64,000 nucleotides of DNA from a virus (Duplodnaviria; Caudoviricetes): the IMG/VR virus record IMGVR_UViG_3300034375_009028. One strand, given 5' to 3'. The translations under genes and the position numbers were made by a program. How positions within the stretch are numbered: position 1 is the stretch's first letter; every line of letters begins with the position of its first letter. The notes under the pieces were generated by a model. That model saw only the letters and a list, made by a program, of their open reading frames with translations. It had not been told where the DNA came from and searched no databases. This document shows, in pieces, positions 40,894 through 48,440 of the stretch.

Positions 40894-41124
40894 CTACCAA
40901 TCTGGATATTCCCATCTATCAAATACTCTGCTTGTCATTCTACTAACAATTATTCTCTTTTTAGTGCATTCTTTGCATTCATATGAATATGAAGAAGATA
41001 CTGCCCCTTTATTTTTACGTGTCCTATAAAATCCTTCAATTAAATTTTTTCTTTGTCCACAATATCTACAAGTTCTTTCATTTAAAAGTAGATGGGATAA
41101 AGATATTTGATTGTCTATATCCAT
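40894..41124 (-). CDS. Small Zn-ribbon-like protein
   Basis: CRYC...FY...YSYECKEC; TAATG overlap with gp17. Confidence 0.6.
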   Translation of the reverse strand: MDIDNQISLSHLLLNERTCRYCGQRKNLIEGFYRTRKNKGAVSSSYSYECKECTKKRIIVSRMTSRVFDRWEYPDW

Positions 41125-42770
41125 TATTGATAATCCCACATGTAGGACATGTCACCATATTCATCAGTAAACCAGCGGTCACCATCTTTATCAACAAAAC
41201 TATCTGATCCCAATCCATCATCAATAAATCCAAAAGGTGCCATGTCTTGTTCTATTTGATTCTTTTGCTCTTCATATAAACGCTTTCTAATATCCTGATC
41301 TGTTAATTCTTTAAAATAATCTTGTGCAACTAACCAAGCATATATTACTAAACACATTGCAAGATCATCATTACATCCATCCTCTGCCTCAAAGGAATTA
41401 TGTTTTTGGATAAACGTTGTTAACTCTGCAATAATATCATAGTCTTTAAATATTAATTTATCCTCTTCAATGAGTGTTTTTAAGTTCAAACATCCAACTT
41501 TTTTAACCGTCTTGGACATCTTTACACCCAATTGTGTCTTCTTCCCAGAAAATCCTTGACCAACAATTTGACCTGCTCTTCCCCTCATAGAGCACATTAA
41601 TAAATTTTGATATTCTAAATCAAATTGTAAAATAGCGGCAACTTGGTCACCAACATCATTAACTTCACACAATACATAAGCATCATTATAATTTTTTGCT
41701 ACTTCATATATGACACTTGGAAATAGCATCGGTTTTATTTCATTATGCCTATATTTTGCAACTAAACTATGTGGGAATGTTGTTATGTCTATCACAGTAA
41801 ATGCAGAATAATCACTACCCACACCTCTTGCAACATCTACGGAAATTACATAACTATGGTCTTTTTGAACGTCTTCAAATACATCTAAACCTTGATTACT
41901 TATTCTTGGTTGTTCATAAACCATAGTCCTAATTTTTGAAGGACTAATGAGAGTATCGACAGATCCTAAGAATTCGCATTCAAACTCGACCTTAAACTGC
42001 TGTTCTGATGTATTGGCAATTGTTTGCCTCTTCCATTCTTCATCTCTACCAGGAACGTCACTCCAATGAACTTCAGTTGGAATATATTCATTCTTTTGAC
42101 GCTCAGCATCATGCCATAATTTATAGAAGTGATTCATACCGTGAGGCGTGCTCACGATAATAACTTTAGTGTTCTTACCAGACGAAATTGTAGGATATAC
42201 TGAACTGAAGAACTGATCAGCAATATGGTTTGCAACGAACGCAAATTCGTCCAGGAAGATGATGTTATAAGATCCACCACGAACTGCAGATGCAGATGTT
42301 GATGCTGCAATAATTTTTGACCCATTCTCCAATTCAAGAGATGCTTTGTTCCAGGTCAAAACACCTTGCTGCAACCAGCGAGGTAAATTCTCATATGCGG
42401 TTTGCAATCTATCTAATAGATCTTTAGCAGTAGATGCCTTGTTAGCAAGAATTGCAATATTTACATTATCATTAAAAATTGCATAATAAAGTAGATAAGA
42501 TACAACAATAGTTGATTTACCAGACTGTCTTGGTAGTTTGCATATATTAAATCTATTATTATGAAAACGATCAAGCATCACCTCTTGAAATGGATACGGA
42601 TTAAACAGCTGTAATCCATAGTCTAGGGTAACAATATTAATATAGTTTTTGGCAAAATATACTGGGTCATCAATACATTTTGCAAACTCTATAACTTGAT
42701 TTTCAGTAAACCCTTGAGATGTATTTGCTTTTTTTAGCAGTGGATTACCAAGATAATGATCAACAGCCAT
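41124..42770 (-). CDS. gp17: Terminase large subunit
   Basis: RQSGKS Walker A, LDEFAF, VDVARG, NDDLAM. Confidence 0.98.
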   Translation of the reverse strand: MAVDHYLGNPLLKKANTSQGFTENQVIEFAKCIDDPVYFAKNYINIVTLDYGLQLFNPYPFQEVMLDRFHNNRFNICKLPRQSGKSTIVVSYLLYYAIFNDNVNIAILANKASTAKDLLDRLQTAYENLPRWLQQGVLTWNKASLELENGSKIIAASTSASAVRGGSYNIIFLDEFAFVANHIADQFFSSVYPTISSGKNTKVIIVSTPHGMNHFYKLWHDAERQKNEYIPTEVHWSDVPGRDEEWKRQTIANTSEQQFKVEFECEFLGSVDTLISPSKIRTMVYEQPRISNQGLDVFEDVQKDHSYVISVDVARGVGSDYSAFTVIDITTFPHSLVAKYRHNEIKPMLFPSVIYEVAKNYNDAYVLCEVNDVGDQVAAILQFDLEYQNLLMCSMRGRAGQIVGQGFSGKKTQLGVKMSKTVKKVGCLNLKTLIEEDKLIFKDYDIIAELTTFIQKHNSFEAEDGCNDDLAMCLVIYAWLVAQDYFKELTDQDIRKRLYEEQKNQIEQDMAPFGFIDDGLGSDSFVDKDGDRWFTDEYGDMSYMWDYQ

Positions 42771-43076: not shown

Positions 43077-43811
43077 TTATAACTCGTTCTTGATTAGTAA
43101 TATATCAAATGCCGCAGTAAAACGACCATTATTACTTCTAGTAGATAGGCGGACATCAATATCGGTTTTTTCTGGCATTTCTTGTGGAAACGAAAACTTG
43201 TAAGTATATTCTCCACCACCAGTAACTTCAAATGTATGTCCAACTCTAAAAATTGTAGCAACTGAATTGTATCTTACATACATCCATCCAGTAGCATCAG
43301 CACCCTCCTGTGCAGTAGCAACACCCTGATAGAGATATCCAGTATATCCTGCGGGTACTGTATAAACTGCCATCAGAGTTTGTCCCGCATCAGCAAGAAT
43401 ACGAAGAACTTGTGTGCCACCTCTGGAAAAGTTGAGTTCTCCTACATTGGTTCCAGCACCACTAGAAACATAACCACGATATACTCTCTTAAATGTCTTA
43501 GTTCCTGTAACTGTACCAGCACTAGAGAGAGTAAATTCTTCTGAAATTAATTCAAAATTTTCATCAAGACCTTCAATAGTTACGACTTTACCATTATCAT
43601 CTGCACCGACTTGTGCTCCTACAAGAACTCCAGGAGTATCAAACGCACTCCAAGGATAAAGTGTATCTTCCTTGTCCCATATAGATGCAGTTGTATTGTT
43701 TGATTGTGAAGGAGTTGCACCGAACTTGTGGATCTGTGATGCACCTCTTACTTTTCCACGGGCAACGTTAAGATCAAACTGTTCGTCCCAGATATAATTA
43801 CGAAATCCCAT
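43077..43811 (-). CDS. Hypothetical protein (possibly virion-associated)
   Basis: 244-aa Gly/Thr/Val-rich ORF in the late operon. Confidence 0.65.
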   Translation of the reverse strand: MGFRNYIWDEQFDLNVARGKVRGASQIHKFGATPSQSNNTTASIWDKEDTLYPWSAFDTPGVLVGAQVGADDNGKVVTIEGLDENFELISEEFTLSSAGTVTGTKTFKRVYRGYVSSGAGTNVGELNFSRGGTQVLRILADAGQTLMAVYTVPAGYTGYLYQGVATAQEGADATGWMYVRYNSVATIFRVGHTFEVTGGGEYTYKFSFPQEMPEKTDIDVRLSTRSNNGRFTAAFDILLIKNEL

Positions 43812-44245
43812 TATCTACAATTCCAACGTCTCAATGCTTTATTTATTCTAGAATCTGGATCTCTTGCTGTTTTAGAAGAAGTTCGTTTGGATTTCATACC
43901 TTTCATTCTACTACAAAACGAAGAACGACGCTTTTTTCTTTTACCTTCTGGATTTTTCTCTGTTACAGCAGTTTGTAATTTTGAACCTGGATTTTCTTGG
44001 CGATATTTTTTTACCGTATCTTTGCTCATACCATCAGTTCTGTCTTTGCGATTTGCTGATTGCCAATCTTCATCAATCCAAGATAATGTTCCATGATTGT
44101 AGTGCTTTGCACTAGTAATGGTAACTGTACCTTTAGGTGTAGATGGATATACGTTTTGAACTACTGCTCCAGGATACTCATTTTGAAGTTGTTCACCAAG
44201 TTCTTTTCTTGATGGTAAATCTCCATTCTCTATAACCATTTCCAT
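43811..44245 (-). CDS. Basic hypothetical protein; probably the -1 frame extension of 44302..45591
   Basis: Frame is open 20 codons upstream of the ATG, back to the slippery site; C-terminal SFCSRMKG...ALRRWNC. Confidence 0.7.
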   Translation of the reverse strand: MEMVIENGDLPSRKELGEQLQNEYPGAVVQNVYPSTPKGTVTITSAKHYNHGTLSWIDEDWQSANRKDRTDGMSKDTVKKYRQENPGSKLQTAVTEKNPEGKRKKRRSSFCSRMKGMKSKRTSSKTARDPDSRINKALRRWNCR

Positions 44246-44269
44246 ATTATAGAGTCTTCCTCTCCAAAG

Positions 44270-44325
44270 AACGTCGGCGGTAAAATGTTCACCGACGTTA
44301 TCTACTTTTTTGGCAGATCTCCTCC
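44270..44325 (-). promoter_or_regulatory. Programmed -1 ribosomal frameshift signal
   Basis: GGAGG (44321-25), 9 nt, A_AAA_AAG (44305-11), UAG stop, 5-nt spacer, AACGTCGG/CCGACGTT stem (44270-99). Confidence 0.75.
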
Positions 44326-45591
44326 AATAACAATTGTACCAACACTGCCTCCAGAGATATTAACATCTTCTTTTACACAATTAGGAACTACTTTACCATT
44401 CTTTTTCTTGGTTCCCTTTGCCTTGTAACCATCCCAGCACTTGCTAGCACCAACGTTGGCGCGTGCTGTTGCCATTTTACCCTCAACATTAAGAGTTTCT
44501 GGATAATTTTTATCACCTGGCTTTCTTTTGGGTTTTCCTGCTTTACGTCTCGCATGAATGTTGTCCCAAAGACCTTTCTTCTCCTCAATTTCTATATCAT
44601 CACTCTTTGAACACTCACAAGGTGTCTTTTTACATTTGCCGCATTCTTCTTTAAGTTCTACTTCTTCTTTAGTAGTAACTTTAAATAATGGGGAATCAAA
44701 ATTTGCATGATTGCTAGGAAGATCTGAAGTAGAGAACTGAAGAACTCTTCCTCCAGGATAAACCTTCTCAATTTCTGCTTGAATATCTTTCTTTGTAGGT
44801 AACTTTGCTTGTGGGAAGAACATTCTTAGATATTGTGAACGTCCCCTCCAACTAACAATGACTGATAGCAAATGACCAAACTCTGAAGGTAGTCTAACTG
44901 CCTCTTCTAGTTCAACTTCCTCATTCTGACGCTCTGCTTCTAACTTAGCAGCAATCGCCATTTGGCGGATTTTTTCATCAGACTTACCTTTAAATTGAGG
45001 TTTTTTAGACTTACGAAAATCTTTAATTACATCTCCCATGTCTGCTTTTGCAAGATCCATACCTTCTTTTGTTGTATATCCTGCTACAGCATCTGTATTA
45101 TGCTCAGTATCAGTAAGTTTTGCTTGCATCCAGGCAGGAAGATTTTTTTCCTTTTTACCAATACTCTTCTTAACTTTCTTTAAGTTTTCTTGGGATTTAC
45201 TAATCTGTTTATGTGCCATGGACACTTCATGATCTTTTTCTTCTCTCTGTGAGAGTAAAGATTCTGGTGTAATTAAGTCAATAAATTCTACAAATTTGTT
45301 ACCAAAAGCATCTTCAATTGTAACTGATTCATCAACATTTGGAATTGGTTTGCAACAGTTTTCTTCAGAGCACCAATAGTGCCCATCACTACACCTCTCC
45401 TCTCCAAGAATTTTATCTACTAATTTTATTTCTTCTTTCTTAATAGTTGGTAGTCCAACCTTCATAGAAGGACGCAATTTTTTATCGGCAACTTTTCTTT
45501 CATTTTCATTTGGAGAATCCTTCATAGCAGCAATTCTATTCTGCTTTCTTGCTGAAGAATGTGCTTTAGTATCTATATTAAAACTGGCCAT
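44302..45591 (-). CDS. Modular Lys/Glu-rich late protein
   Basis: Short modules separated by E-rich linkers; late motif GATAAATA at 45614-45621. Confidence 0.75.
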   Translation of the reverse strand: MASFNIDTKAHSSARKQNRIAAMKDSPNENERKVADKKLRPSMKVGLPTIKKEEIKLVDKILGEERCSDGHYWCSEENCCKPIPNVDESVTIEDAFGNKFVEFIDLITPESLLSQREEKDHEVSMAHKQISKSQENLKKVKKSIGKKEKNLPAWMQAKLTDTEHNTDAVAGYTTKEGMDLAKADMGDVIKDFRKSKKPQFKGKSDEKIRQMAIAAKLEAERQNEEVELEEAVRLPSEFGHLLSVIVSWRGRSQYLRMFFPQAKLPTKKDIQAEIEKVYPGGRVLQFSTSDLPSNHANFDSPLFKVTTKEEVELKEECGKCKKTPCECSKSDDIEIEEKKGLWDNIHARRKAGKPKRKPGDKNYPETLNVEGKMATARANVGASKCWDGYKAKGTKKKNGKVVPNCVKEDVNISGGSVGTIVIGGDLPKK

Positions 45592-45612
45592 TATCCAAAA
45601 GAGTGCTTTTTA

Positions 45613-46041
45613 CTATTTATCGTTTAGTCGCTTTTGATTTTTTAAATATTTAGATAACTCATCTGTAGATCCAAAAAATACTGCATTGTTAGTAACATTT
45701 GTTGTCTTCCCTTTGGGATTTTCCTCATCAAGTTCTTTCATCTTCTTTTGAAGATCTACTATTTTGTCCGTCGCATCTGATACATTTTTAATTAATTGTG
45801 CAACAACTTCATATGCTCTTGGTTGTCCACCATCAACAGCAATTTCTAAAGCACTATCAAGTGCTTCTTGACCCTTTTCTATAATTGAATATAAATTTCC
45901 TCTGGTATATTCATAATCTTTAGTAATATCTTCATTAGGATCTTTTATAGGAACTATTTTATCTTTTCTTTCTTTTTTTCTCTCTACTATATCAGCATCA
46001 ACGTTAAAAGTTGAATTTAAGTCATCGAAGTGTTCTTTCAT
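45613..46041 (-). CDS. gp16: Terminase small subunit
   Basis: KDYEYTR, PRAYEV, NVTNNAVFFGSTDEL. Confidence 0.93.
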   Translation of the reverse strand: MKEHFDDLNSTFNVDADIVERKKERKDKIVPIKDPNEDITKDYEYTRGNLYSIIEKGQEALDSALEIAVDGGQPRAYEVVAQLIKNVSDATDKIVDLQKKMKELDEENPKGKTTNVTNNAVFFGSTDELSKYLKNQKRLNDK

Positions 46042-46046
46042 GATTT

Positions 46047-47036
46047 TTACCCACTAAAACCAAAGTCATCACCAGCACTGATTAAATTATTATCAGACTC
46101 ATCTATTCCATATATTGCGCTACCACCAACATGCTCAGCTGCTACTGTATTGTAAGCAGCTCTTGTGACTGTAATTTCATTACCATTTACTGATCTAACA
46201 TAAATTGTTTCCTCGTCAATTGTTATATAAGTATCTGCTGCTATTTGGGATCCATCTTCAACATCAAGAATGGTAGCATCTGGTAAAGTATCTATATTTA
46301 ATGTTGTTTTAACTATTCCTGTATAATTTTTAGTTGCTACTGGTTTCTTATAAATTAGATTTCTTGCTCCTGCACCAGAAGTATCTGCACCAGCAAGACC
46401 AATAGATACGCTCTTGATAACATCTCTGGTAGAATCTTTAACAGGACCAAACAAGTATGTTTTAGCTGTAAACTTCAACGTATAAAGTAAAACTCTTCTT
46501 GTTGTGAAATCTCCTTCATAATTATCTTCAAAATTAACAGATTCTAAAGTTATAGGAACATCTCTTTTCTCACCAATTGTATCCACCAAATCTATAGTCA
46601 ATGTATAATTTGGTTGAAAGTATGGAAGTATTTGTTCAACTATTTGTAAAGCATCGTCATTTAATAATGTCATTATAGACAACTCAAAGTCCATATTGTA
46701 TGGTACAGGAAAATATACTTTTTTAATATCAGTCTTATCTGATTTTAGTGTAGTTGTAAAGTGTTGAGTTCCTGCTAATTTTCTACCAGTATCATAAGAT
46801 ATTCCTGTAAATTCAAATGACATTCTAGGAAGACTCATTTGAACTGGTTTATTTAAATTTGCTTGCTGCTCAATCCTAGCAAGAAATTTTTGAGTGGGTC
46901 CATATGCTAATGGAACTTCAATTACTTCTTCTGCTACCCCATCAGTAGATTCTCTTTTAATTTTTATATTATTAAAAAGAGTTCCAAAAGATATTACAGT
47001 TTTTCTGAATATTTGGTGGTAAAAATGATCAAACAT
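46047..47036 (-). CDS. gp15: Tail sheath stabiliser / terminator
   Basis: FGTLFNNI, VPLAYGP, LPRMSFE, QIVEQILPYF, FTAKTYLFGP. Confidence 0.93.
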   Translation of the reverse strand: MFDHFYHQIFRKTVISFGTLFNNIKIKRESTDGVAEEVIEVPLAYGPTQKFLARIEQQANLNKPVQMSLPRMSFEFTGISYDTGRKLAGTQHFTTTLKSDKTDIKKVYFPVPYNMDFELSIMTLLNDDALQIVEQILPYFQPNYTLTIDLVDTIGEKRDVPITLESVNFEDNYEGDFTTRRVLLYTLKFTAKTYLFGPVKDSTRDVIKSVSIGLAGADTSGAGARNLIYKKPVATKNYTGIVKTTLNIDTLPDATILDVEDGSQIAADTYITIDEETIYVRSVNGNEITVTRAAYNTVAAEHVGGSAIYGIDESDNNLISAGDDFGFSG

Positions 47037-47048
47037 GGCTTTATTTTT

Positions 47049-48440
47049 TTAAGGATTTCCGAAAGGATTTGACTCACTAAAATCTAGTATGTTATCTGCT
47101 TCGATTTCAATAGTTTTGTTTTGTTTGAATTTATCTTCAATTTCAATATCATTATTTAGAATAGTATACTGTGCTCCACTTTCAGATCCAGTTAAAATCT
47201 CTCCATCAATAAATGTTCCCAATATGTTGCCCAAGGTTAAGACCTTGTTAATAGTATCCCAAGATTTTACTCTTGCAGTAGAACTGTTTGCAGATCCAAC
47301 AACAACTTCATTGAATATAAATTTACCAGTTCCTATTACTACATCAGGAGGATCTATAACAACAGTAGGAACTTCAGCATAGTTGTTTCCACTATCATGA
47401 ATTACAATAGAGGTAACTATTCCAGATTCACTAATCAATGCTGATGCTACAGCAGGAATAAATCCAGTCAATCCTGCCCCAACAAATGTAACATTAGGTG
47501 CTTCATAATAACCACTACCTCCACCAGTAATTGTTACTACACCTACAGCATTATTTGCAATTTTACATACTCCATATGCTCCACTTCCACCACCTCCAGT
47601 AAATGTTATACGAGGAGTCACTGTATATCCATATCCAGGGTTTATAATATCTACTGCTTGAACTCTTAAAGACTCTTCAGATGTATCACATAGATCAACA
47701 ATTCCAGAAATCATAGATGCAATTCCAACAGCAGTTAATCCATTATCTGGTGCAGAAGTAATTGCGACTCTTGGAGATTCAAAATATCCAGAACCTCTAT
47801 TTGATATTGAAACAGTTCTTATTGCACCATCCACTAAACCAGTAAATGCTGTTGCAGTAGTTCCAACTCCAACCATTTGAAGTTTTTGTAAAAATCCTTC
47901 TTCCTCTATATTATCATCAATTTCATCTACACCCGTAGCAATAATTTCATCATTATAAACATATAGCTCACATTTTAATTCATAAACATAGTTTTTTTGT
48001 AATTGATAAAAAGGTTTTTCATGTTCTACATATTTTATTTCGAATAATTTATCACCCAATGGAAAATAAATTAAGTCCCCCTCTTTGGGTCTCTCTGTTA
48101 ATTTTGTATTCTCTATGGGTTCAATAATGGGTCGTATTCCCAACTCATACCTTTCTTTTGATATTATTAGTGTTAAATCATCTACTTCTTGAACACCAAA
48201 TTTTGATAGTAAAGTTCCTGCTCCACCAAAACCTTCATATGTATCTACATATGCTTCAATAGGAATAGCAACAGTAAATTCTGATCTAGAGACTTCTTCT
48301 AATATAGTTTTTTCATTTACAAATATTCTTGGAATGTAATAAATTTCTATCCCAAACATCTTAATGTGCTCGTTTACAAGGTCTTGAACTAAACCTTGTT
48401 CTCCAGAAGATCCGTGTAGAAAAAATGGATTTAATGGCAT
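47049..48440 (-). CDS. gp14: Neck protein
   Basis: LNPFF, YYIPR, PKEGDLIYFP, FEIKYVE, ESNPFG; internal Gly-rich repeat insert. Confidence 0.92.
   Translation of the reverse strand: MPLNPFFLHGSSGEQGLVQDLVNEHIKMFGIEIYYIPRIFVNEKTILEEVSRSEFTVAIPIEAYVDTYEGFGGAGTLLSKFGVQEVDDLTLIISKERYELGIRPIIEPIENTKLTERPKEGDLIYFPLGDKLFEIKYVEHEKPFYQLQKNYVYELKCELYVYNDEIIATGVDEIDDNIEEEGFLQKLQMVGVGTTATAFTGLVDGAIRTVSISNRGSGYFESPRVAITSAPDNGLTAVGIASMISGIVDLCDTSEESLRVQAVDIINPGYGYTVTPRITFTGGGGSGAYGVCKIANNAVGVVTITGGGSGYYEAPNVTFVGAGLTGFIPAVASALISESGIVTSIVIHDSGNNYAEVPTVVIDPPDVVIGTGKFIFNEVVVGSANSSTARVKSWDTINKVLTLGNILGTFIDGEILTGSESGAQYTILNNDIEIEDKFKQNKTIEIEADNILDFSESNPFGNP

Follow-up and report, generated by a model that had tools for sequence, protein, structure and literature searches.

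Among the closest described systems is the dnaX gene of E. coli, in which an SD sequence lies 10 nt before the heptamer AAAAAAG and a hairpin of 11 bp follows it after 6 nt (PMC4344849). The decoding of AAG by tRNA-Lys(UUU) only is reported to make A_AAA_AAG very slippery in E. coli (Tsuchihashi and Brown, 1992). The same heptamer is found in the IS3 family (IS911, IS150, IS3), where a fusion is made from overlapping frames with a 0-frame stop nearby, and in some members of this family the OrfA-OrfB site is also preceded by an SD-like element and followed by a structure. In phage morphogenesis, the tail chaperone pair G/GT of lambda, with its heptamer G_GGA_AAG, and 10A/10B of T7 each comprise a short and a C-terminally extended protein from one gene. 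We are not aware of any report of programmed -1 frameshifting in T4-like phages.

We herein analyse a virus sequence (Duplodnaviria; Caudoviricetes; IMG/VR record IMGVR_UViG_3300034375_009028), the window being the whole stretch of 64,000 nucleotides. Our main reading is that one of its late genes probably carries a programmed -1 ribosomal frameshift site yielding two proteins from one message; we put this at roughly 0.84, in the absence of reporter or peptide data. The gene is flanked by terS (45613-46041) and terL (41124-42770), and the synteny gp13-gp14-gp15-terS ... terL, established by Pfam and PHROG matches, is that of the late module of T4-like cyanophages (Kyanoviridae). The best matches of this module are Synechococcus and Prochlorococcus phages, and the phage-collection records matched (169 and 311) are almost all cyanophages. 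No tRNA genes were found in the window. The phage itself is an uncultured freshwater T4-like cyanophage, for which freshwater Synechococcus or Cyanobium are likely hosts. The features of the locus are listed below.

44302..45591, minus strand: ORF-A, 0 frame, 429 aa (P0001), the putative short isoform and N-terminal part of the long isoform
44319..44325, minus strand: SD-like element GGAGGAG (codons GGA GGA G), invariant in all 4 haplotypes
44305..44311, minus strand: slippery heptamer A_AAA_AAG, in the X_XXY_YYZ phase of the 429-aa ORF-A
44302..44304, minus strand: 0-frame stop TAG, adjoining the heptamer on its 3' side and kept in every relative
44270..44299, minus strand: predicted hairpin (5' arm 44299-44290, loop 44289-44280, 3' arm 44279-44270)
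44246..44305, minus strand: start-less part of the -1 frame, 20 codons (VDNVGEHFTADVLWRGRLYN), readable only after a shift
43811..44245, minus strand: ORF-B in the extent expected from a gene caller (144 aa, starting at ATG 44245), with a second ATG at 44239
44081..44293, minus strand: WRG domain copy 2, homologous to a free-standing 106-aa cyanophage protein (phrog_1742)
43823..44047, minus strand: DUF6321 (PF19846), basic C-terminal domain, 45.5 bits, E 1.2e-11

The 3' end of ORF-A reads GGA GGA GAT CTG CCA AAA AAG TAG on the minus strand, with the GGAGG core at 44325-44321 separated from the heptamer by 9 nt. The two GGA codons also encode a conserved Gly-Gly pair. A_AAA_AAG is the sole slippery heptamer within the 10-18-codon overlap of the two frames, and the 5-nt spacer TAGAT leads from it to a hairpin whose 10-bp stem (AACGTCGGTG with CGCCGACGTT, one U.G pair included) encloses a 10-nt loop. 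The predicted energy of this hairpin is -16 kcal/mol (z -4.06), and 0 of 200 shuffles fold as well. The -1 frame comprises 164 open codons, opens 10-18 codons before the heptamer, and contains no ATG, GTG or TTG between the heptamer and ATG 44245. AAAAAAG occurs 42 times on both strands of the window, 8 times in phase within long open frames; among these eight, the site at 44311-44305 alone combines a strong hairpin (-16 vs -7.8 or weaker), an SD-like element and an extended -1 frame (164 vs at most 11 codons). Compared with the other heptamers of the window and with shuffled sequences, the cassette exceeds chance expectation.

A first-pass annotation, made from the sequence alone, had described most of this architecture, and its description held: the cassette coordinates, the GGAGG spacing and the in-phase heptamer were all confirmed, as were the openness of the -1 frame through 20 codons into ATG 44245 and the location between the terminase genes. 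The 8-bp stem it had drawn (AACGTCGG/CCGACGTT, starting 5 nt downstream) also held and extends to 10 bp. Its claim that the extension resembles a domain inside ORF-A was likewise borne out, with residues 239-283 of ORF-A and residues 5-49 of the -1 frame being 31% identical (E 1e-8), an internal paralogy in a modular protein whose WRG domain copy 1 lies at residues about 233-292. Two further structures were tried and rejected. A pseudoknot between the loop sequence CAUUUU and GAAAUG about 40 nt downstream was judged a chance pairing, as the L002-type haplotype breaks it, and a stem lengthened by 4 weak pairs to take in the UAG, with which the spacer would vanish, was left uncounted.

The locus meets the criteria of a dnaX/IS3-type site, namely a heptamer in phase, an open start-less -1 frame encoding a conserved protein, a (predicted) structure about 5-9 nt downstream, an SD-like element about 10 nt upstream (assigned from sequence alone), and a recoding arrangement kept by relatives that have diverged. 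Much like dnaX, it combines AAAAAAG with an SD-like element, here at 9 nt, and a hairpin, here of 10 bp at 5 nt. However, the dnaX shift meets an early stop and gives a shorter protein, whereas a shift in the window would add 164 residues; gene and organism differ as well, and no shift has been measured in the window. With the IS3 family it shares the heptamer, the overlapping frames and the nearby 0-frame stop, but the gene is no transposase, has no inverted repeats, and belongs to the virion-module genes of a lytic T4-like phage. The short and extended morphogenesis proteins recall G/GT and 10A/10B, yet the locus lies between terS and terL rather than among tail tube and tape-measure genes, and the protein, with its DUF6321 and DUF5661 modules, is unrelated and matched no chaperone family. 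Membership of the tail assembly chaperones is thus not met, and the likeness is one of working only.

Evidence that the -1 frame is coding ahead of any start codon comes from its substitutions. Between the window and the relative L005, the 20-codon extension shows 7 synonymous and 2 non-synonymous (conservative) codon changes in the -1 frame, against ratios of 1:6 and 3:5 in the other two frames, and protein homology begins at residues 1-5 of the -1 frame. The first ATG (44245) is CTA in L003 and L005-L008; the second (44239) is conserved among relatives and could possibly permit independent initiation of a truncated ORF-B. The -1 frame ahead of any start codon is under coding constraint, and homology runs unbroken across the junction, which supports the statement of the first-pass annotation that the bases before the ATG look protein-coding.

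Conservation of the cassette was followed in loci from JGI, ENA and IMG/VR, and in a DNA contig and an RNA-library contig. A6G followed by TAG is present in 15 metagenome loci (at least 11 distinct contigs) representing 4 haplotypes, and A7 in none. The A6-or-A7 question raised with the original annotation came out in favour of A6 at the level of contigs, not of raw reads. The RNA-library contig spanning the site has A6 and no indel; the RNA evidence consists of contigs only, in which minority A7 transcripts would be hidden. The window phage and the L005 phage are 64% identical in gp14, 69% in gp15 and 71% in terS, and at this distance the SD-like element, the heptamer, the stop and the spacer after the heptamer are identical and the stem is kept, with U.G becoming C-G (L005 hairpin, -18.4). 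The spacer between the SD-like element and the heptamer differs at 6/6 nt, and so do 3 other Gly codons just upstream of the SD-like element. Variation of the hairpin among relatives is confined to the loop, the wobble pair and the basal pair. Covariation, which had been suggested as a check, is the part that did not materialise: no double-sided compensatory change was seen among relatives, only the replacement of U.G by C-G and the disappearance of the basal A-U pair, because the stem hardly varies. It remains possible that stem conservation comes partly from coding. ORF-B is intact and 84% identical between distant phages, and all matches to ORF-A at 50% identity or more among 5.8 billion proteins are of the unfused form. 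No close relative among GenBank phages covers the gene, the best DNA match covering 23%.

Natural in-frame versions, another suggested check, were found in two forms. Residues 400-507 of the trans-frame protein align end to end with free-standing 106-aa proteins, the junction K429|V430 lying inside the alignment; such homologues occur in the cultured phages S-SCSM1 (gp30, E 2e-26) and Sf-FS3 (gp169), with equivalents in DSL-LC02 and S-RIM2. In addition, a WRG domain and DUF6321 are joined in one long ORF at about 35 IMG/VR loci. WRG domain copy 2 is predicted to adopt a beta-beta-alpha-beta fold, and in an AF2 model of the free-standing homologue the position equivalent to the site falls within a linker of low confidence that immediately precedes the folded domain; the shift site is predicted to sit in a flexible linker just ahead of it. 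The DUF6321 match spans residues 87-161 in the product of the -1 frame and lies above the Pfam gathering threshold of 28.5 bits, and ORF-B is likely the C-terminal part of a 593-aa trans-frame protein.

The cultured cyanomyoviruses S-SCSM1 (gp29), P-TIM68, DSL-LC02 and S-RIM2 (gp101) have the same locus and neighbours, and their proteins share the VPNCV motif, the WRG domain and the DUF6321 modules with the window gene. In them DUF6321 follows directly in frame without recoding, and a gene of its own, next after it, encodes the 106-aa module, whereas in the clade of the window this module lies within the gene, ahead of DUF6321, and holds the shift site. The gene was in frame in all cultured isolates examined. 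The S-SCSM1 record, whose accompanying paper describes mass spectrometry of virions, gives gp29 and gp31 as virion proteins; by this annotation, a member of the family belongs to the virion of a cultured relative.

The mechanism we propose is inferred. Ribosomes translating ORF-A would come to CCA AAA AAG UAG, where tRNA-Lys would occupy both sites, reading AAA in the P site and AAG in the A site. There the ribosomes may be held between an upstream barrier, GGAGG 9 nt before the heptamer pairing with the 16S anti-SD, and a downstream one, the 10-bp hairpin that begins 5 nt past the heptamer and would lie at the mRNA entry channel. Some ribosomes would move back one base (AAA AAG to A AAA AA) and continue with GUA GAU AAC through 164 codons; the 593-aa product would consist of the short form, the WRG domain with its beta-beta-alpha-beta fold, and the basic tail formed by DUF6321. 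Unshifted ribosomes would terminate at the UAG next to the heptamer, and the 429-aa form would be released. From the sequence, the full 593-residue protein in all likelihood requires a slip at A_AAA_AAG, and VDNVGEHFTADVLWR is predicted to be the tryptic junction peptide that arises only after the shift, although no proteomics data are available. Three points are inferences: the attribution of the shift to the ribosome rather than to RNA polymerase, how efficient the shift is, and the need for both isoforms. The idea that two isoforms are made at a set ratio, put forward in the first-pass annotation, was favoured by the tests that can be computed; it is still inferred, and the ratio is not known.

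The rival that survives best, though we consider it unlikely, holds that two independent genes are present, with ORF-B initiated at ATG 44245 or 44239, perhaps by re-initiation, and the upstream -1 codons a relic. In its favour, gene callers mark an ORF-B of 142-144 aa in the window, L001 and L005, and the second ATG is conserved; strong SD sites are also often missing from cyanophage genes. On the other hand, the 20 codons before the ATG substitute as coding sequence (the 7:2 ratio above) and form part of a domain whose homology begins at residue 1-5 of the -1 frame, and a protein begun at the ATG would lack part of the first strand in the predicted fold. The first ATG is, moreover, gone in the lineages with CTA, the DUF6321 frame of type ii relatives (described below) is start-less for 61 codons, and a relic should have decayed between such distant phages.

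RNA polymerase slippage on A6, adding one A to some transcripts, would lead to the same 593-aa protein but is very unlikely. An A7 mRNA, CCA AAA AAA GUA, encodes an identical junction, and contig data cannot rule out a minority of such transcripts. Known productive cases of transcriptional slippage, however, use about 9 or more residues, for which A6 is short; an SD-like element at 9 nt and a hairpin at 5 nt exert their effect on ribosomes (PMC4344849); the G_GGA_AAG of types ii and iii contains no homopolymer; and the RNA-library contig is A6 over the site. A sequencing or assembly error, or a recently inactivated, decaying gene, is conceivable since homopolymers are indel-prone and the window is a metagenome contig, but is all but excluded by the same state in those 15 loci from differing samples and pipelines, by the intact ORF-B, and by the absence of an A7 allele anywhere despite the ease of an A6 to A7 mutation.

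Besides the proposed frameshift site of the window, other lineages carry three further -1 cassettes in this gene, each placed ahead of the basic C-terminal domain.

Type ii: G_GGA_AAG-TAG with an SD-like element 10 nt upstream, 20 loci
Type iii: G_GGA_AAG with a GC hairpin
Further cassette: A_AAA_AAG-TAA/TAG with an unrelated hairpin

The heptamer of types ii and iii is that of lambda G/GT, and the A-site codon AAG is common to all three. In 11 of the 20 type ii loci the DUF6321 frame lacks a start codon for 61 codons. Recoding is needed in about one third of 120 homologue clusters; a search of GenBank isolates for the type ii cassette did not find it. Because relatives carry three other slip-site designs there, a short plus a long virion protein looks selected for, and from four designs at one domain boundary of a virion protein it can be argued that two isoforms in a set ratio are needed. 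This leads to a bolder reading, towards which we lean without much assurance: at least four different -1 cassettes, preceding DUF6321 or an AAYWANKxKW-type domain in uncultured T4-like cyanophages, would reflect repeated evolution of recoding in the terS-terL virion gene family, with selection for a fixed ratio of tailed to tailless protein. The ratio of forms with and without the basic tail would then be comparable to that of the tail chaperones G/GT.

In the literature searched, nothing was found on frameshifting in cyanomyoviruses or on DUF6321, nor any earlier description at the gp16-gp17 locus, in agreement with the first-pass annotation; the kind of mechanism (dnaX/IS3-type -1 frameshifting) is known, and its occurrence in the window gene is undescribed there. 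Gene callers split the gene: the DUF6321 ORF is called in truncated form or, in types ii and iii, the domain goes unnoticed altogether, and the family is therefore systematically mis-annotated in cyanophage metagenomes. Isoforms with and without the very basic tail offer a handle on the unknown function of DUF6321. If the frameshift reading is true, natural dnaX-like and lambda-like cassettes act on the ribosomes of cyanobacteria, for which the part played by SD pairing is a matter of debate, and the natural variants (SD only, hairpin only, both) form a ready comparison series.

With regard to the protein itself, a fold search with the WRG domain gave no significant PDB match (best, T7 Gp2, E 0.17), and a search of a viral fold library returned the same cyanophage family only. 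Processing of a polyprotein by the prohead protease was considered and rejected, the 6 [LI]xE motifs showing no enrichment over shuffled sequences (5.35 +/- 2.1). Three of these six motifs lie at module borders.

The minus strand of 43700-45700 reads ...ATT GGA GGA GAT CTG CCA AAA AAG TAG ATAACGTCGGTGAACATTTTACCGCCGACGTTCTTTGG... This is best interpreted as a site of dnaX/IS3-type −1 ribosomal frameshifting, which we consider likely (probability about 0.84) in the absence of experimental evidence.

Elements of the proposed shift site
45591..44302, minus strand: ORF-A, 429 aa (P0001)
44325-44321, minus strand: GGAGG, Shine-Dalgarno (SD)-like, 9 nt before the heptamer
44311-44305, minus strand: slippery heptamer A_AAA_AAG, in X_XXY_YYZ phase
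44304-44302, minus strand: 0-frame stop TAG
44299-44290 with 44279-44270, minus strand: hairpin stem, 10 bp with one U.G pair, 10-nt loop
G44305 to 43811, minus strand: −1 frame, 164 codons (P0002)

The spacer TAGAT (5 nt) leads from heptamer to stem, and from G44305 the −1 frame reads VDNVGEHFTADVLWRGRLYN before reaching ATG 44245, the start of ORF-B (144 aa). The hairpin (−16 kcal/mol, z −4.06) was equalled by 0 of 200 shuffles. As a control, AAAAAAG occurs 42 times in the window, both strands counted, and 8 times in phase within long open frames; this one alone among the 8 combines a strong hairpin with an SD-like element and a long −1 frame. The first-pass annotation had proposed this heptamer, GGAGG at 9 nt, a stem starting at 5 nt and an open −1 frame running 20 codons into ATG 44245, all of which held; its 8-bp stem is present, but the true length is 10 bp.

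In the proposed mechanism, an unshifted ribosome would stop immediately, giving 429 aa, and a shifted one would gain 164 residues, giving 593 aa. How efficient the shift is, what the adjacent stop contributes and whether both isoforms are needed are all matters of inference. In Escherichia coli dnaX, AAAAAAG is preceded at 10 nt by an SD and followed at 6 nt by a hairpin of 11 bp (PMC4344849); the corresponding values here are 9 nt for the SD-like element, 5 nt for the hairpin and 10 bp for its stem. Unlike in dnaX, the unshifted product is the shorter one and the shift lengthens it; IS3 OrfAB and the lambda G/GT pair behave likewise. The mechanism itself is classical, and −1 frameshifting of this type is already known; the literature searched yielded no account of frameshifting in cyanomyoviruses and no paper on DUF6321, the basic C-terminal domain of ORF-B (45.5 bits, cut-off 28.5).

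By its Pfam and PHROG matches the gene belongs to a T4-like late module, in the order gp14, gp15, terS, ORF-A, ORF-B, a 244-aa gene, an 89-aa gene and terL.

Neighbours assigned by Pfam/PHROG
47049-48440: neck protein gp14
46047-47036: gp15
45613-46041: terS
41124-42770: terL

Matches in phage collections are nearly all Synechococcus and Prochlorococcus phages, and the public runs containing this stretch are freshwater metagenomes and metatranscriptomes. The 244-aa gene (phrog_8198; 43077-43811, minus strand) has a homologue in S-SCSM1 gp31, which carries a virion-protein annotation (36% identity, E 4e-41); in the lineage of L005, a metagenome locus of the same design, the corresponding gene is unrelated (22% over 109 aa). 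At 43770 and 43785 the window has A and G, and all four runs compared (3 RNA libraries, 1 DNA) give T and A, which suggests a different common population allele there.

The rival that survives best is independent initiation of ORF-B, which is unlikely given coding constraint and homology ahead of its ATG. The −1 frame opens only 10-18 codons upstream of the heptamer, contains no ATG, GTG or TTG before 44245, and has CTA at the position of this ATG in L003 and L005-L008. Over the 20-codon stretch, window and L005 differ by 5 synonymous and 2 conservative codons in the −1 frame, compared with 1:6 and 3:5 in the other two; against the L002-type haplotype the counts are 2:0 and, in the other frames, 0:2. 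Residues 5-49 of the −1 frame align with ORF-A residues 239-283 (31% identity, E 1e-8). The earlier proposals that the extension resembles a domain within the upstream ORF and that the bases before the ATG look protein-coding held, the latter supported by codon differences and homology.

Continuity across the junction was examined on a joined product built by script from P0001 and P0002. Its residues 400-507 align along their whole length with 106-aa proteins that are free-standing in cultured cyanomyoviruses, including S-SCSM1 gp30 (residues 2-106, 44% identity, E 2e-26), Sf-FS3 gp169 and the DSL-LC02 and S-RIM2 equivalents; the K429|V430 junction lies inside the alignment, adjoining a single one-residue gap. 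S-SCSM1 gp29 matches residues 401-592 (E 3e-27); its record annotates it as a virion protein, and the record's paper identified 45 virion proteins by mass spectrometry (PMC9602691). Colinear matches, first to the end of ORF-A and next to ORF-B, come from several PHROG profiles (28131, 727, 11180, 10346, 30733), so single-chain homologues exist. The natural in-frame fusions that the first-pass annotation had suggested seeking were found: about 35 IMG/VR loci hold the WRG domain, a small module, and DUF6321 within one ORF of 500-770 aa. In an AF2 model of a free-standing homologue (mean pLDDT 65.6, core ~80), confidence is low over the first 34 residues, and directly after the shift-site equivalent a beta-beta-alpha-beta domain starts, which predicts that the site falls in a linker at a domain border. 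The core of this model (m6464c98b20ec, homologue of 44081-44293) shows a weak resemblance to T7 Gp2 and other small proteins that bind RNA polymerase (PDB 4lk0_M, E 0.17, TM 0.74 by target; a Dickeya phage 'RNA polymerase inhibitor', E 0.025), a non-significant likeness that is merely a possible lead.

Transcriptional slippage within the A run is very unlikely, since the run is short, the stimulators are of the ribosomal type and relatives use G_GGA_AAG. Sequencing error or a decaying gene is all but excluded by the identical state of 15 loci (at least 11 distinct contigs) in four haplotypes. These loci, all A6G followed by TAG, are L001 to L008 (JGI and ENA assemblies of differing samples), four IMG/VR contigs and three JGI metagenome contigs, one duplicating an IMG/VR contig. 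A 2297-nt DNA contig (43614-45910) and a 616-nt RNA-library contig (43987-44602) span the site without indel. The A6 versus A7 question is thereby answered for contigs, not raw reads, and an assembly or sequencing error can very probably be set aside. Among 5.8 billion proteins, all ORF-A relatives at ≥50% identity are unfused (429, 448, 482, 486 and 495 aa, plus one 284-aa fragment); the nearest fused one has 39% identity. Because A7 is absent although A6 to A7 is an easy mutation, selection appears to act against simply closing the frame.

The proposed ribosomal frameshift site is also kept between distant phages. The window phage and that of L005-L008 share 64% (gp14), 69% (gp15) and 71% (terS) identity, and the gene that comes next is not homologous between them. 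ATTGGAGGAGA, AAAAAAGTAGATAACGTCGG and the 3' stem arm are unchanged, and between SD-like element and heptamer 6/6 nt differ at constant length. Across the 16 upstream codons, GGA GGA stayed the same, and three other Gly codons differ at the third base. Hairpin variation is limited to two loop positions, the U.G pair (C-G in L004-L008) and the basal A-U pair. No double-sided compensatory change occurs among the related loci compared, so covariation speaks neither for nor against the stem; of the proposed conservation, heptamer, SD-like element and stem were confirmed.

The more interesting part, beyond the scope of the original finding, is that the configuration recurs, in four designs, at a single domain border. 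Many ORF-A homologues lacking DUF6321 stop abruptly, and at this locus their contigs carry three additional putative −1 cassettes, the window's being type i.

Further putative −1 cassettes
Type ii (L102:3535-3836, also L111-L114, L116-L119, L123, L124, all with a bare DUF6321): GAGGAGGAAGACCGCCT G_GGA_AAG TAG, SD-like element 10 nt upstream, stop adjacent
Type iii (L103:2820-3047, L125:2412-2657): TC G_GGA_AAG, 6 nt, 11-bp GC-rich hairpin
Type iv (L101:2890-3179, L127:2823-3098, L128:2538-2981): A_AAA_AAG, immediately followed by TAA/TAG, hairpin 5-6 nt downstream

In all four, AAG occupies the A site and AAA lies one base back. Type ii comprises 20 loci with three downstream architectures. 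For 11 of these loci the −1 frame encodes nothing but DUF6321, in 91-92 codons, with its earliest start codon 61 codons in and no gene called; as inferred from sequence alone, this domain is probably reachable only through a −1 shift. An in-frame twin (P0062) reads DRLGK-I-DEKLNIKKADMGEVIDDF, against trans-frame GK-V-DEKLNIKK. Another protein, P0092 (619 aa), has EEEDRLGK-IDEKLNIKK in frame, followed by an odd C-terminus of low complexity (LFKNMINNKFFFIFS), which may reflect a chimeric contig or the end of one. In type iii (hairpin −16 kcal/mol, 0-frame stop five codons on), the −1 frame gives ASSGGLNEKGRRSY... plus the remaining DUF6321, where in-frame relatives read AAWTKKSGKNPEGGLNEKGRKSY; the design is kept between L103/L104 and L125/L126 though loop and flanks changed. 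The type iv hairpin is lineage-specific (AAGGCA-NNNN-TGCCTT in L101 and L127, TCCCAC...GTGGGA in L128), and its −1 frame leads to a differing basic C-terminal domain (...GKMSAAYWANxxKW), found in frame in 12 other homologue clusters.

Endings of the 120 best ORF-A homologue clusters (tallied partly by manual reading)
In-frame, DUF6321-type: 58
In-frame, AAYWANKVKW-type: 12
Type ii: 28
Type i: 5
Type iii: 4
Type iv: 6
Other: 7

The big protein of cultured phages has ...VPNCV-DUF6321 at its C-terminus, and the 106-aa gene comes after it as an ORF of its own. Phages of the window's clade have this 106-aa module within the gene, where it separates VPNCV from DUF6321 and carries the shift site. [LI]xE motifs occur at module borders (ORF-A residues 228, 313 and 335, joined residue 506; EVELEE|A, EVELKE|E, IEIEE|K, SWIDE|D), placed as expected for a T4-type prohead protease site; they are not enriched (6 in total, 5.35 ± 2.1 in shuffles). 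In the terS-terL module of S-RIM2 (KX349234), ~300 nt (L010:2365-2673) lie unannotated between hypothetical genes of 178 and 354 aa. In its in-frame gene (L010:3500-3530), the start of DUF6321 is encoded TCA GGA AAA AAC, an in-phase A_AAA_AAC where type iii relatives carry G_GGA_AAG. This may be chance in a Lys-rich region; conceivably, a −1 slip there would reach a stop after ~20 codons, a dnaX-like truncation.
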